A DNA stretch of 64,000 bases. Origin: Styela clava (Eukaryota). This document shows positions 27,978 to 35,600 of the stretch, one piece after another. Below the pieces are notes generated by a model, which saw only the letters and a program-made list of their open reading frames with translations, was not told the DNA's origin and ran no database searches. Where the stretch lies: contig NC_135251.1 in the NCBI RefSeq assembly GCF_964204865.1, positions 20,522,001 through 20,586,000 on the forward strand, read 5' to 3'. Within the stretch, counting starts at the first letter, position 1. Every line of letters starts with the position of its first letter. Made by a program: the position numbers and the translations under genes.

Positions 27978-28439
27978 TAATCATTCGGTTTGCTCTTCTT
28001 GCAATTTATTACGGTTTTGTTTAGTAAAATTTCAATCATTGTCTGTTTTCAAAAATAATATTCGTTTCAGTTTTTCATTTTTCTCAAAATTTTACATATA
28101 ATATTGTATTCCTTATATTTTTTGCAAATAAAAACGACTTTTCAATTGCGAAGTTTTCTTATTTGCAAACGAACAGTGCATAGAGACCTAAATTTGGCTG
28201 GGCAGATTTTGCAATTTGCACAAGATCCACAGTGTCGAGTTTTTCGAAACATCTATTTATTTTATAGCTATTGATGAGTTGTTCATGGGAAAACTTGGTG
28301 GCGTTCCGATTATGATAGCCTGAAGTATATGGAGTTGTGAAACTTTAAATATTTAAGTCTTTGGCTATGAGAATATGACATTGTTTACTTGAAATAGGTG
28401 CTCCAAAGACGCAGCAAAGTTTATTGTTTGTGTTGTATA

Positions 28440-28722
28440 CAGGGCCGGGTTTTAAGTAGCATTAGTTAAATGTTTAGTATTTCGCCAAACCTTCAATGAT
28501 GTTAAAAAGCGTCGGTAGTTATACGTTTAAATAGCGTTTCACCATAACTTCAACACTGTTATGAATGTTCCGTGCCGTACGTTTGTTACGTAAAACAGTA
28601 AGAGTCGTCAGACCAACACGATTTATTTCAGTAAACACTGAATCGCCATTGTTCGGTGATAGCCCCTTTCCTTTGGTGCCTCAAGCACATGCCCATTTTG
28701 CTTAATGATTAATCCCGCCCTG
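28440..28722. mobile_element. hAT-type MITE between HAUS3 and AP1M1
   Basis: Ends CAGGGCCGGGTTTTAA / TTAATCCCGCCCTG; flanks GTTGTATA / GTTGTATG (7 of 8 bp TSD match). Confidence 0.7.
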
Positions 28723-29093
28723 GTTGTATGGAATTAGGCAAACTTGAAGATGAAGCAAATGCTATTGCAGCCGCATGCAGAAATGATTGCTATCAATAGA
28801 ATATTTTTTTTAAAAGTATTCTTTATTTCCTTGAAAGCGTTTTGGTGTTTTATTTACCTTATTTCACTCAGCAAACTGAATCAGCGGACATTGTGGGTGT
28901 CGCTGCATAAAGACCTTTTGAGGTCCCTCGCGACTCTCCTGTCACAGAATTGTTAAGTTTGTTTCCCTTTGTTAATTGTAAAGTTTTTTCCTGTGATAGA
29001 TTATTATTGTGTTGACGAATAAAAGACTGATATTCGCTAATTTTTAGTTACGTGCTTGTGTTTAACTTTGTTCTCATTAAGACCACATAAGCT

Positions 29094-29235
29094 CGGCGAT
29101 GTGGCGCATCGTGTTAAGCTCTAGAAATACGCTCGCCACCGCATCTCTAATTACCCCTGCGTGGGTTCGCAGGTTGAAATCCCGTGGGTGATATTTATGT
29201 GCGAGAGGATCGCTGGACTTCTTTTTTGAGGGTGC
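29094..29235 (+). mobile_element. tRNA-derived SINE family A, head fragment
   Basis: GTGGCGCATCGTGTTAAG...ATACGCTCGCCACCGCA...AGGTTGAAATCCC aligns with the 39.7 kb copy. Confidence 0.8.
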
Positions 29236-29321
29236 CGCTACTCGATAACCAATGTTGTATTTCTGCGTCTCCACTCACTCTGAAACCATAATTTAGTGCT
29301 TGTGCAGCGTGATTTCAATAT

Positions 29322-29448
29322 GGCGCGGTGGTGTGGCTCATCGTGCTAAGCGTTAGGAATATGCTCGCCACCGCGTGGTTTGTCATATGGTTAATCCGTC
29401 TTATCGGCTTTCCTCTCCCGGGGATAAATATGTAAATCCTATCCTATT
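29322..29448 (+). mobile_element. tRNA-derived SINE family A, internally deleted (head fused to tail)
   Basis: Head GTGGCTCATCGTGCTAAGCGTTAGGAATATGCTCGCCACCG is joined directly to tail CGTGGTTTGTCATATG...GGGGATAAATATGTAAATCCTATCCTATT. Confidence 0.8.
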
Positions 29449-29692
29449 ACTGATTAACTGGCTTAACTTTAGGATGAATCAATTTTTTTACGACTTCAAC
29501 TCGAATTTGGGTAATTTGGGGCTTCTGTCGGTGACGTGGCTGGTGGCAATACCGGTAAGGTTTTAATGGGGTCAAGGGTCGAGGAAGCAACCGGTAAGGA
29601 GATTTTGTTTCAGCACTTTCAGAGCCATATTGCTGTTCTATCTATCTATCGTTACGTCTGTCGGCAAACTTGGGTGGAATCACAAAACTACG

Positions 29693-32600
29693 ATGGTTGC
29701 TTCAGCTATTTATATATTGGATTATAAGGGAAAGGTAATGTTCAGAAAATTGTATCTCTATCCTTGGTACAGCAGCACAGTACAATTTCCACGGTTTCCG
29801 TATGCATTTAGTGTATTTCATGTGTGGTGAAAAAATAAACTACTGATTACTGATTACTGATTCCACGCAATGGAGAAATAGAAACGTAGGGTAACGTTGT
29901 TACCGGAACCGTCTGACCGTACCGGTACCGGTACCGTACTAAATAAGAAGTGAAAGCCAAAATTTAATCCTAACTTACCACGGTACCGGTACCGGTAAAC
30001 TGGTGCAGGAACACCTGCATGTCTGCCGTTGTTATACAGTAATGGTACGGTCCGACAGTCGGCAGGTCGGGAACCGTTCAAGCCAACATTGCTCAAACTC
30101 TATTTACTGATTTACCAAGTTTTATAGTAAAGTCCAACAGGATAAATACTGAAATATAAAATTCCCAGACACTTAAATATGAGAAATTTGATAAATCTGT
30201 GGTACCGACATATTGATAATGTTATACGAATACTGAAAGAGTTTTATTTTATCTCAAAAAAAAATTTGGAAATTGTTTTATTTTAAATATAAATTTATTT
30301 TATTTTGCTTTTTAGGTTCTAATATGCAGAAATTACAGAGGAGATATTCCTATGAATACAATAGACAATTTTCCCAAGTTATTGATGGAACAAGAAGATG
30401 TATGAATTATTTTTCAATCAATATATTTTTTACTAAGAGGCTAACTATGCAACGTTACTTGGAAACTATGGAAATGATATTTCTCTCTTTTATATATATT
30501 TTTAAAAAGATTTTGTTTTTAACAATTTACGAACAATTCTAATTTTAATGAAGGAGTAACACTATGTTAACACCTCGCATACTAATAGGGGGCATTGCCG
30601 GAGCTGGCAAGACACTCCTGGTAAAGTAGCTCCATTCTGCTTAACGTACCTCCCTGCCCTGATGAAGTTTTTCTGTATAGAAATTCGAAACGTCGGCAAA
30701 TTACATCGTTTTGCTAACACCGGTTGTGCTTCATTTATCATCAACGTACCTCGCCTAATGTTAATGATAGTTTTCTTTTATATGACATTTCATCTCCTTC
30801 ACATTGGGTAAGGCCCTGCATAAGCAAACTGTCCATTTCAGCATTTCCTACCCTATTTACTATGCTTGGTTGTCAACGGGTTAAACAATAGAGAATTGAA
30901 TACAGCACCTGAGAGTCTTTCTCCAAATTGTCTGTTTTCATATCAATAGTAGTTTAGTTTAAATATATAAAATTAATATCATCTGTCTATTTCAACTCAA
31001 ATATTTTTCTGTGTGCATTTTTAGGAAGGCGCAATGTCACCAATCATTCAGCATGGAGATGTTACTTTTATTTTCATCAAATTTAGTAATTTGTATGTTG
31101 TTGCTACAACAAATAAAAACGCAAATGTTATGATGATAACAAGTTTTATGCACAAAATGTGTGAGGTAAGCATAACTCATTTGTGTTGCTAATCATATAT
31201 TCTTACCCTTTGCTCCAAACAAGATCTTGTACAGATAACCACTTATATCCAGCATTGCTTACCTAATTTGATACGCCTTGGGTATGGTAAGGGGCATGAG
31301 GTAAGGGGCATGGGATATGAGATGTGCAAGCTACAATGTCATCATATTCAAGTGTAATGCTTTTACCATCAGGAATTCACGCCCAATCTGTTATGTTTTA
31401 TATTTCAATTCAACGAAAACGATTTTATTACTCATGTGACACATTCTGAAAAAAAATACTATTTACGCTAACAATGTAAATTTTGAATATAGTGTTGATT
31501 TCAAATCTCATATAGCTTAAATTTTTTCAGTTATTTCCAGACCATACAAAAGTTCCATCTTTGATTGGTCAGCATAGTTTTTATGATACTCAAAAGTGGT
31601 AGTTTCTCGTGTAATATGATCAGCAATTGGGGGGGGGGGTCACCTCTCCCCAGGAATGAATATGAAATTTCTATCCTATGTAAATTATGTATATTTTGAA
31701 TAAAATGAGTTTAAATGCATGGAAGATATGATTTCTCTGTGGTGTAAATTTTAAAAGTTTACAAAATAGAAATTGCTTTTTATAAATGGAAACTGTTGGT
31801 CTTCAAAGACCCATTTGATATTTTTTTCGGTGCTTATGCCTACATATATGTGATTGATTACTCAACATTTTGTATATGTTAATGAGTTTAAACTAAATAA
31901 TTTGGTGTTTATTTTTTAGATCTTCTGCCATTATTTCAAAGAATTAGAAGAAGAATCCATAAAAGATAATTTTGTTATTGTATATGAACTTATGGATGAA
32001 GTGATGGATTTTGGATTGCCACAATTTACTGATCCGAAAATCTTACAAGAGTAAGTTTTTGCAAATATTTTATTTCTGTCATCACATCTAGACTGTCTGC
32101 CTTTTAGGAACTTTTTTGCTAGATTGTTGCTATTGAGATGATTGTTGCTGTCGTTAGAAGGTTATCACTTTTTTCAAAATTTTGAGTCCTATGTGACACT
32201 ATATTTTACTCAAAACTTTGATGTTTTATTTAAAGGGGAACACTTTTTAGTCCATTGTGCTTGATTGCCTTCGTCATGTTTTTCGTCCGGTTTCAGCAAT
32301 CTCTGTGCTTCCAAGCTTTACCATACCAGAAAAATATGAAATCTTCTGTGTCCATATATTAGAGAATCGCTCTATTGTTTAACAGAATATTAAATTTTAA
32401 ACTTTTGTATTATCATGTTTAGTCATTTTAACTTCTTTTTATTAGGTATATCACCCAAGAAAGCCATAAGCTTGAAATTCAAACACGGCCTCCTTCAACA
32501 GTGACCAATGCTGTTTCATGGAGGTCTGAAGGCATCAAATACAGAAAGAATGAGGTGAATGTAGTTTTTCAGTTGATGATTCTTAAAATTCGTCTGTTGT

Positions 32601-35600
32601 TCCATTTGTTCCTGGTACATCAGATGTACGGTATATATATCCCATGTTTATACTGTGAGTCCAGCAATCCTCATATACATATTTATTCCTCACAGGATTA
32701 AGACCTGCGGACATTATTTATTAGGAGGTAATTGGATGTGCGACGGTAAGCGTATTTCTAGCTCTAGTTGTGCTACATCAAGCGAAGCGTCTGTAAACAA
32801 GTATTTACGATATTTGCCAACATTTTTTTTTCTAAAAATAGTTATTTGCTGAGATTGCTAATCTTTGTTATTGTTACGATACTTTATGCAGTTTCTTTCC
32901 ATTTTCAGGTTTTTCTTGATGTTATTGAATCAGTTAATCTCCTGGTTAGTGCAAATGGTAGCGTTCTAAGATCAGAGATTGTCGGCAGTGTCAAAATGAG
33001 AGTGTTCTTGACAGGGATGCCTGAATTGAGGTTGGGACTCAATGATAAAGTGTTGTTCCAGAACACAGGAAGTAAGTATAAAGATTTACTTCACAGCGAC
33101 TCGAACTTCATTTTCCCACTTTTTAATAGGACTCTGAACAAAGCCCTGTGTAAGCAGCAATTCTAACCATATTTAAGGAGCTACTATTTTCTGGAAGGAC
33201 GCCTATCCAATTTATCACGCTCTGGTTTTAGGGGTGGCTAGGGCTGGACTTTTCGAATCGAATAGTGAATTATTCGAATCGGTTCAGACGAAGATATCAA
33301 ATCGCCGCCATCTTGTTTTTTGTTCGTCTGCCATATGTCGAGATGAATCCCTCTACTATTATTGAAGCCATGTTTTTAAAATGCAATTCTGGCGTATTCT
33401 GACTCTTTTCTTCCTAGAGAGGTCTTAATTGTGTGTGAACACTCAGTGAACTGAGTGAGTGATAGATTCTATGTTTTCAGTGATTTATGTGGAGAAGCCA
33501 TAGCAATAAGGAGGCAAATATAATTACATATCTTCCTAGTATTCAAGATTCGATTTGTTTTGAAAAAACAACCACTAGGTCATTGCGCTGGGCACGATAT
33601 GTCTTATTCTTTGGATTTGTTAAGCATCCACTTTTCCTTGGGCCATTCTGGTTTCATTTTTAATAATGCACTTTACACGAGTATAAATTCGATTTCTGTA
33701 GGAGGGAAAAATAAAGCCGTTGAAATGGAAGATGTGAAATTTCATCAATGCGTTAGATTGTCAAGGTTTGAAAATGACAGAACTATCTCATTTATTCCTC
33801 CTGATGGGGAATTTGAACTGATGTCCTACAGGCTCAACACCCATGTGAGTAGATTTTCGAACTAGTTCATTCCTAATTATTAATGGTTGCTTGTTCATAG
33901 GAACCATACTATTGTTTTCTACACATGAGTGACAACATGATCGAATCTATAAATATAGTTAGGGCAGGGCTTCTCAAACTGAGCCCTCAGCCTCCCGCAA
34001 AGGAGGCCCATGAGCAAAGACCTTGAGGTACCATTTGTGATGACTGCATCAATATAAAGTAAATTAACTTTGATTTTTTCAATTCTTTGACCTGATTTAT
34101 TTATTGTTTGATTCCGTAGTTGGCTTCTTATCGTAGGTTAATGCTGCGTATAACCTTATCTAATGTTAAAAATCTTGAAAGTTCAAAAACCACTGGTAAA
34201 GTCTGATTACATTTTCTATATTACAGGTCAAGCCATTGATATGGATAGAATCTGTAATAGAGAGGCATTCACACAGCAGGGTTGAAATAATGGTTAAAGT
34301 AAGTATTTACACTACTGTTAGTATGATTAGTTATTTTGAATAATTTAATAATAATATTTCTCTCAATGGATAATTTGCAGAATTTCAGTTAAATTCTATT
34401 AAAATATCATCATCTTTTTTAATGAAAGAGCGAGTATGTATAAATATTGTGGAAAAGAATTGTCGTTCTGATTCGTCAGTTTTAATACTATCACAAGTAG
34501 GAAGAAGACAAAGACAAAAGGCCTTCAATTCAATACACAATATCCTAGTACTTTCTATTAATAATTTTAATTTTGGGATACTTTCATTAAACTAAGGGGC
34601 TATTCGAAAAATGTACTATTCCTCTATCTTTGACAAACTAGAAATTGGTAACAATGAGCTGTTACAATCCGCACTATAAATAACCCTTTACTCATCTCTA
34701 AAATTTCAGGCGAAAAGTCAATTCAAAAGAAGATCAACTGCAAATAATGTTGAAATCCATGTATCGGTACCAAATGATGCTGATTCACCGAAGTTCAAAA
34801 CTACGGTTGGTAGTGTGAAATGGGTTCCAGAACAAAGCATAATTGTGTGGACCATAAAATCATTCCCGGTAAGCAGTGGAATAGATTTTGGTAGTTCAAT
34901 GATTTGATTGAATTGAACTTCATTTTAGATAGTATCTGTTGGTCATTGTATTTCATACATAGGCTTGTCATCTATTATAATCTTGTCAGTTTGTCACCGC
35001 GATTTTCTTAGCAAATTTTACTAAGGATCCCATTTCCTCTGGATAGAATATAACACTCCTTCAGTATCTCTTTACCAAATTTGCCTACTAGACACAATAC
35101 ACGACACGGTCTCGAGCCATCTCTTGGATGTTTTTCAATATAAACTTGTTTTTTAATCAATAGACTTTCAGATCATTAAAAGTCGTGAAGGTAAATTTTT
35201 TATAATTATTCCTAATAGGGTGGAAAAGAATATCTGATGCGAGCTCATTTTGAATTACCAACTGTTGAGAGTGAAGAAATCGAAGGAAAACCTCCAATAC
35301 GTGTCAAGTTTGAAATTCCATATTTTACTACATCAGGAATACAGGTATGCTGTAGATTGGTCGTGGGCAGTTGTTTTTCAGCACAACCTCATTTGGCTGC
35401 AAGAAAAACATTATTTTTGTCTCATAATAAAGACATATCAAAGTTTATTTTACCGAATTTTACGCACCATGAGGCTCACTGTCAATAAATTGCTTAGATT
35501 GAATATATTGGGTTTTTGTTCAAACATAAGGTGCACAGCCACTACGGTGATTTATATATAAAACAAAGTATCAGCCAGCACTGGTCTTGAGTGTAGGCAA

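Follow-up and report, generated by a model that had tools for sequence, protein, structure and literature searches.

What kind of sequence has entered the second coding intron of the AP-1 mu gene in this genome, and does it give the pre-mRNA a means of cutting itself? The window analysed here is the whole 64,000-nt stretch of Styela clava DNA. A sequence-only reading had described an insert of about 187 bp (30571-30757) between ATGTTAA duplications, and took it for a solo pLTR or retrozyme, perhaps of an undescribed family, with self-cleaving potential in the host transcript. Our analysis indicates that the locus very probably holds a haplotype-specific insertion of 100 bp, consisting of the 91-bp hammerhead end of a young Penelope-type element and a 10-bp target-site duplication, and that the ribozyme is predicted to be inactive. 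The features are collected in Table 1.

Table 1. Features of the insertion and its host intron (window positions)
Feature	Position	Strand	Basis or remark
Coding intron 2 of AP-1 mu gene, 625 nt, GT..AG	30400..31024	+	Spliced contig, exon matches
Host intron DNA, outside the element	30571..30642		Single-copy; kept in the empty haplotype
Target-site duplication, left copy (10 bp)	30643..30652	+	Identical to 30743-30752
Two extra bases at the 5' junction	30653..30654	+	CC in the window, ...ATCA in family copies
pLTR piece of Penelope/Poseidon-type element, 91 bp	30655..30745	+	Tail-less 3' end; 5' end is the first base of stem I
Minimal type I hammerhead	30655..30698	+	4-bp stem I, full core, weak stem II
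Predicted cleavage site, after GUC	30694..30695	+	Position from the hammerhead consensus
Target-site duplication, right copy	30743..30752	+	First 3 bases common to the element end

The host gene was identified from its exons and from RNA. A contig of run X5 joins 30399 to 31025 (GT..AG) at a depth of 88; X5 was taken as RNA from this spliced contig, which fits either allele. The exon at 31025-31165 matches AP-1 mu-1 (E 2e-10), a later exon matches AP-1 mu (E 5e-26), and the first coding exon is at about 29703. Among 5 candidates examined, no other close copy of the gene was seen. Intron 1 contains an inverted-repeat element with ACCGGT-rich arms (29898-30059), possibly a MITE. In intron 2, upstream of the insert, 30552-30626 (+) encodes a Walker-A-like peptide with a weak Pfam match (E about 0.1). 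This segment is single-copy and present in both haplotypes, and represents either a chance resemblance or a decayed NTPase fragment.

The extent of the insert is defined by comparison with the second haplotype. Its contigs in runs X1 and X3 retain 30571-30640 but are shorter by a net 100 bp, and the joint of the empty allele passes from 30613 to 30741 with 27 letters between. In the genome, 30555-30654 is single-copy and only 30655-30745 is repeated. The 10-mer AACGTACCTC is found on both sides of the repeated part, the two copies lying 100 bp apart. Thus, the insert is composed of the 91 bp of element, two further bases at its 5' junction and one copy of the duplication, with an overlap of 3 bases between element end and target that brings the net length to 100 bp. 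The extra CC may be untemplated, or may be what is left of a 13-bp duplication minus one base. The single-copy flank, the empty allele and the 10-bp duplication together rule out the 187-bp insert. ATGTTAA is host sequence, and recurring 7-mers are frequent in the intron (35 observed versus 23.9 +/- 6.1 in shuffles).

Both alleles are present in X1 at similar depth (7.5 for the filled allele and 6.8 for the empty one), and X1 may come from the very sample that was assembled. In X5, which comes from another study, an intron contig with a depth of 4 follows the window haplotype as far as the fourth base of the insert. This is suggestive, though not proof, of the filled allele in that sample as well. 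The haplotypes differ strongly over 30493-31046 (17 differences in 224 bp and 10 in 120 bp).

The 91-bp piece belongs to a repeated family. There are 48 other matches to it at 94-100% (with 40 of 433 candidates scored), and exact 21-mers taken from it occur 91, 118 and 105 times in the genome (0 for reversed controls). More than 100 near-identical ends of the family are present; the copies are very uniform and the family is young. Longer copies extend upstream to a GIY-YIG endonuclease and a reverse transcriptase (RT). The order RT followed by C-terminal GIY-YIG was found in L009, L030, L047 and L051, all of them broken copies. In a linked copy, the Pfam match to RVT_1 was below the cut-off for that model (E 3e-6), and the match to GIY-YIG exceeded its own (E 2e-5). 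In all three copies checked, the distance from the GIY-YIG stop codon to the start of the hammerhead is 143-152 nt. An extra cysteine motif in the linker is absent from the translations of this family and present in other, intact PLE families of the genome. By the criterion of PMC8557442, the translated sequences point to an element of the Penelope/Poseidon type.

No intact autonomous copy of the family was identified among the 67 candidates, all scored, which gives a lower bound from one haplotype, and no full-length ORF was found between direct pLTRs of the family in that haplotype. Two same-strand copies on C4, spaced 2394 bp, were considered as a full-length element; this was rejected, as host DNA has been duplicated in tandem there. 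This duplication (L057:2175-6941, G000 C4) places two sense hammerheads of the family in one stretch, and the pair is a candidate for a natural dimer, if transcribed. Also on C4, at 1.8-3.2 Mb, are copies of a sister subfamily (L040-L046), about 77% in RT, that are repeated at a spacing of 130-330 kb and likely lie inside segmental duplications; all those seen are broken. An ORF start at the core AUG, as in the Poseidon element of Anolis carolinensis (PAc), is doubted, given a stop 4 codons on in the sister subfamily.

The ends of the family copies show further regularities. The 3' ends are bimodal and about 30 nt apart, with 59/143 at 30741-30749 and 58/143 at 30772-30775; the window copy belongs to the first cluster. 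Among neighbour pairs within 10 kb (147 positions), 29 of 33 are inverted. A MITE with terminal inverted repeats was considered and rejected, because the inner ends of the inverted pairs are ragged and the family is linked to RT and endonuclease. In intact copies a TATA-like box occurs 32 nt upstream of the point at which the window copy starts, at stem I, and 5/143 copies start at 30651-30655. These sequence features suggest that the window copy may be a copy of the RNA start rather than a random truncation. Formation of the insertion may have involved nicking of the site by the element endonuclease, priming of RT near 30745, which is the first of the element's two internal start sites, and a stop after 91 nt. 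The stop would represent ordinary 5' truncation or arrival at the start of the element RNA.

It is very improbable that the window copy represents a monomer from a hitherto undescribed family of non-LTR retrozymes with units of about 187 bp. Retrozymes are reported as derived from Penelope pLTRs (bioRxiv 10.64898/2026.07.22.740005), and most copies of the window family are indeed short and non-coding. However, the repeated part is only 91 bp, the family runs on upstream into the GIY-YIG ORF, its 5' ends are ragged and often inverted, and same-strand tandem units of 150-450 bp number 0 among the 147 positions listed (18 further matches lie outside this set). Same-strand pairs within 10 kb make up 4 of the 33, at distances of 30, 2394, 6362 and 6368 bp, and none is a short tandem unit. 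The genome search for copies gave RT/GIY-YIG-linked copies and, among the positions listed, no short tandem arrays. With the motif placed behind a GIY-YIG stop and short tandem units lacking among those positions, the proposal of a retrozyme or a new retrozyme family does not hold: the insertion is a PLE stub.

Hammerhead positions follow the standard numbering, and the cut is placed by the standard rule. In the window motif, the 5' strand of stem I (30655-58) is followed by CUGAUGA (30659-65), an extra A, the G10.1-C11.1 pair (30667/30686) that closes stem II, GAAA (30687-90), CGUC (30691-94) and the 3' strand of stem I (30695-98). All core elements (CUGANGA, GAAA and NUH) are present, and the intact core is the same as that of the commonest family form. 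Both the extra base before 10.1 and the G10.1-C11.1 pair are family traits: across the fetched loci, the extra A was found in 116 of 118 motifs and G-C at 10.1-11.1 in 105 of 118. Stem II is built from this G-C pair, two U.U mismatches and 5 bp, and alone is worth -1.3 kcal/mol. Helix III is reduced to an ACGU palindrome (30690-30693) with no loop III, and its within-molecule pairing probability is 0.

A minimal-hammerhead descriptor gave 1 match on both strands of the 64-kb window and 0 in 200 shuffles, so no second motif or partner was found there by this search. Rfam reported no hammerhead at E<=5 within 28000-33000. Stems I and II show no compensatory change within the young window family. 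Support for the stems is cross-family only, from Neptune-type families of the same genome in which the core is kept and the stems are wholly different yet paired. The sense orientation and the core at 30655-30698 given by the sequence-only reading stand, but stem II is weaker than it implied; it was right that this is a Penelope-type minimal hammerhead that would need a dimer.

Folding was assessed with nearest-neighbour energies, which leave out tertiary contacts and proteins. In the monomer, G5-A6-U7-G8 pair with C15.2-G16.2-U16.1-C17 with probability 0.87-0.95 in 4/4 context lengths, and an active-like monomer reaches -7.3 versus -9.5 kcal/mol for the favoured fold. The double-hammerhead dimer is predicted at -13.5 versus -19.0 kcal/mol for two monomers, and an inactive duplex at -31.6 kcal/mol. 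Because helix III is unable to form, the core is sequestered, the window holds no partner and the intron is spliced, the lone hammerhead is predicted to be inert in the host pre-mRNA. Cleavage of AP-1 mu pre-mRNA is, on these models, unlikely. Rare cleavage in trans may occur, since the family ribozyme may be active in vivo. A single minimal hammerhead gave no cleavage and dimers gave little (PMC4209133), and the anole Poseidon hammerhead was cleaved only with the protein of the element (PMC11167929). The hammerhead would serve the RNA of the element, where two pLTR copies could pair via the ACGU palindrome, likely with protein aid. The lone intronic copy would lack helix III, with G5-G8 base-paired to the cut site, and would most likely be a neutral passenger that is removed with the lariat.

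Family transcripts or element protein might pair with or refold the intronic copy, so that the pre-mRNA is cut and the output of the allele lowered. An intact core in the commonest family form, the sense orientation, the occurrence of family sequence in the RNA-like run X5 and the peak of family 5' ends at the cut site (see below) would all fit such conditional activity. Against this, the inactive monomer and the inactive duplex both beat the active dimer, the window piece stops short of the tail region, introns are short-lived, and the intron contig has a depth of 4 versus 88 for the spliced mRNA. Even dimers cleave at low rates in vitro (PMC4209133). We consider conditional activity improbable and retain the inert copy as the preferred reading.

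Loose ends before 30695/30696 in the contigs of runs X1, X3 and X15, which rank with the best-supported ends there, led us to map the 5' ends of the genomic copies. The cut site had been fixed beforehand by the hammerhead consensus; the peak itself was an unplanned result. An anchor at 30722-30742 gave 100 listed matches of 105 and 3 more, leaving 96 copies after removal of 7 with shared flanks. Six of these start at 30695, 14 at 30694-30697 and 43 in 30655-30717. Relative to the downstream density, p is 3e-4 at 30695 (6/96 versus 0.9 expected) and 2e-5 at 30694-30697. Addition of a second anchor gave 143 distinct copies out of 152, with 7 starts at 30695, then 5, 3, 3, 1 and 3 at 30696-30700; there are 1 and 2 at 30693-30694 and 0 at 30690-30692. 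Position 30695, the first base past the predicted cut, is the commonest 5' end between 30640 and 30722. The copies that start near the cut are mostly inverted junctions, a point against cleavage. Predicted unwinding cost is highest at 30696-30700 and has fallen by 30695.

A second set of 5' ends was obtained from the Neptune-type PLEs of the same genome. These elements (L179, L182 and L184 on G000 C5, C18 and C10, also L180, L183, L185 and L186) have open frames of 799-977 codons. Several of the frames lie between direct pLTRs, each pLTR with a minimal hammerhead that has a perfect 7-bp stem II. An 18-mer common to these families occurs 1,280 times, and the first matches on C1 among these provided 77 distinct copies (L187-L256, G000 C1). 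Their main 5'-end cluster (17/77, at -53 to -48) lies about 15 nt upstream of the core and is likely the transcription start. Only 2/77 start at +1 and 19/77 within +1 to +12; internal deletions account for some of the short ends. There is no sharp peak, and a cut-site peak in these families is equivocal. Also observed on C1 is a fold-back array (L226:286-2841; G000:C1:6694000-6697200) that comprises three units of about 588 bp on one strand and two on the opposite strand. A Neptune-type hammerhead is present in each unit, and the array is a retrozyme-like mini-array of another family.

The peak in the window family may be a genomic fossil record of germline cleavage after GUC, with RT running off the cut end, a reading that we hold tentatively. 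RT proceeding from the internal start sites to the cut end would yield copies of 50-80 bp that start one base past the cut, and the window copy would be the uncut counterpart that reaches the RNA start. The peak might instead reflect stalling of RT in stem I, helped by short junction homologies, and this too is a real possibility. The maximum of the unwinding cost at 30696-30700 holds 15/143 ends and can explain the shoulder, one chance-matching base would shift an end from 30696 to 30695, and the inverted junction in L093 uses a GCAAA homology. The scarcity of +1 ends in the Neptune-type set also fits stalling, as does the anole Poseidon, for which no read ended at the cut site (PMC11167929). 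Stalling accounts less readily for a mode at 30695, where the predicted cost is already down, for the excess at that base over the downstream density, for the empty positions 30690-30692, and for the well-supported loose ends in X1, X3 and X15. In literature judged mostly from listings, we met no report of genomic PLE copies that start at a hammerhead cut, which is a weak negative.

Penelope hammerhead stubs number hundreds to thousands in animal genomes. The insertion itself is thus of little consequence, being a stub of a common kind that is predicted to be inert. The segregation of filled and empty alleles makes a carrier a natural test of a lone minimal hammerhead on a host pre-mRNA. The 5'-end peak at the predicted cut supplies a test that needs only genome sequence and could be applied to any assembly. 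If cleavage is its cause, the 5' ends of copies would read out minimal-hammerhead activity in vivo across animals. In vivo evidence for Penelope hammerhead cleavage is noted as lacking in PMC4209133, and no reads end at the cut site in PMC11167929. We conclude that this is an ordinary insertion of a known type, plus one testable lead in the 5' ends.

The window motif resembles the metazoan PLE pLTR hammerheads (Cervera and De la Pena 2014, PMC4209133) in its 4-bp helix I, extra base 9/10.1, G10.1-C11.1 pair, palindromic 15.2-16.2 and absent loop III. That set also consists mostly of solitary motifs from truncated elements, with opposite-strand pairs 100-700 bp apart. It differs in having a clean helix II of 7-8 bp, whereas helix II of the window has two U.U mismatches after G10.1-C11.1, and in that copies of the window family are very uniform. 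Similarity to PAc (Frangieh et al. 2024, PMC11167929) extends to RT with C-terminal GIY-YIG, a pLTR hammerhead, and 3' ends in two classes separated by about 30 nt, a tail signature tied in that work to two RT start sites. The PAc ORF starts inside the hammerhead, whereas the sister subfamily of the window family has a stop after the core AUG; PAc lacks RNA reads ending at the cut, whereas genomic 5' ends of the window family peak there. Solo, truncated and inverted pLTR insertions of Penelope (PMC3846280, PMC8557442) share the 8-10-bp duplications, the optional 30-40-bp tail, inverted 5' copies and an upstream TATA box. Unlike these insertions in general, the window copy is direct and tail-less and starts at stem I. 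Non-LTR retrozymes (PMC7229834, bioRxiv 10.64898/2026.07.22.740005) are likewise short, non-coding, hammerhead-bearing mobile DNA of animals, but the window family has no 150-450-bp tandem units, has a minimal rather than a canonical hammerhead, and is linked directly to an RT-endonuclease ORF.
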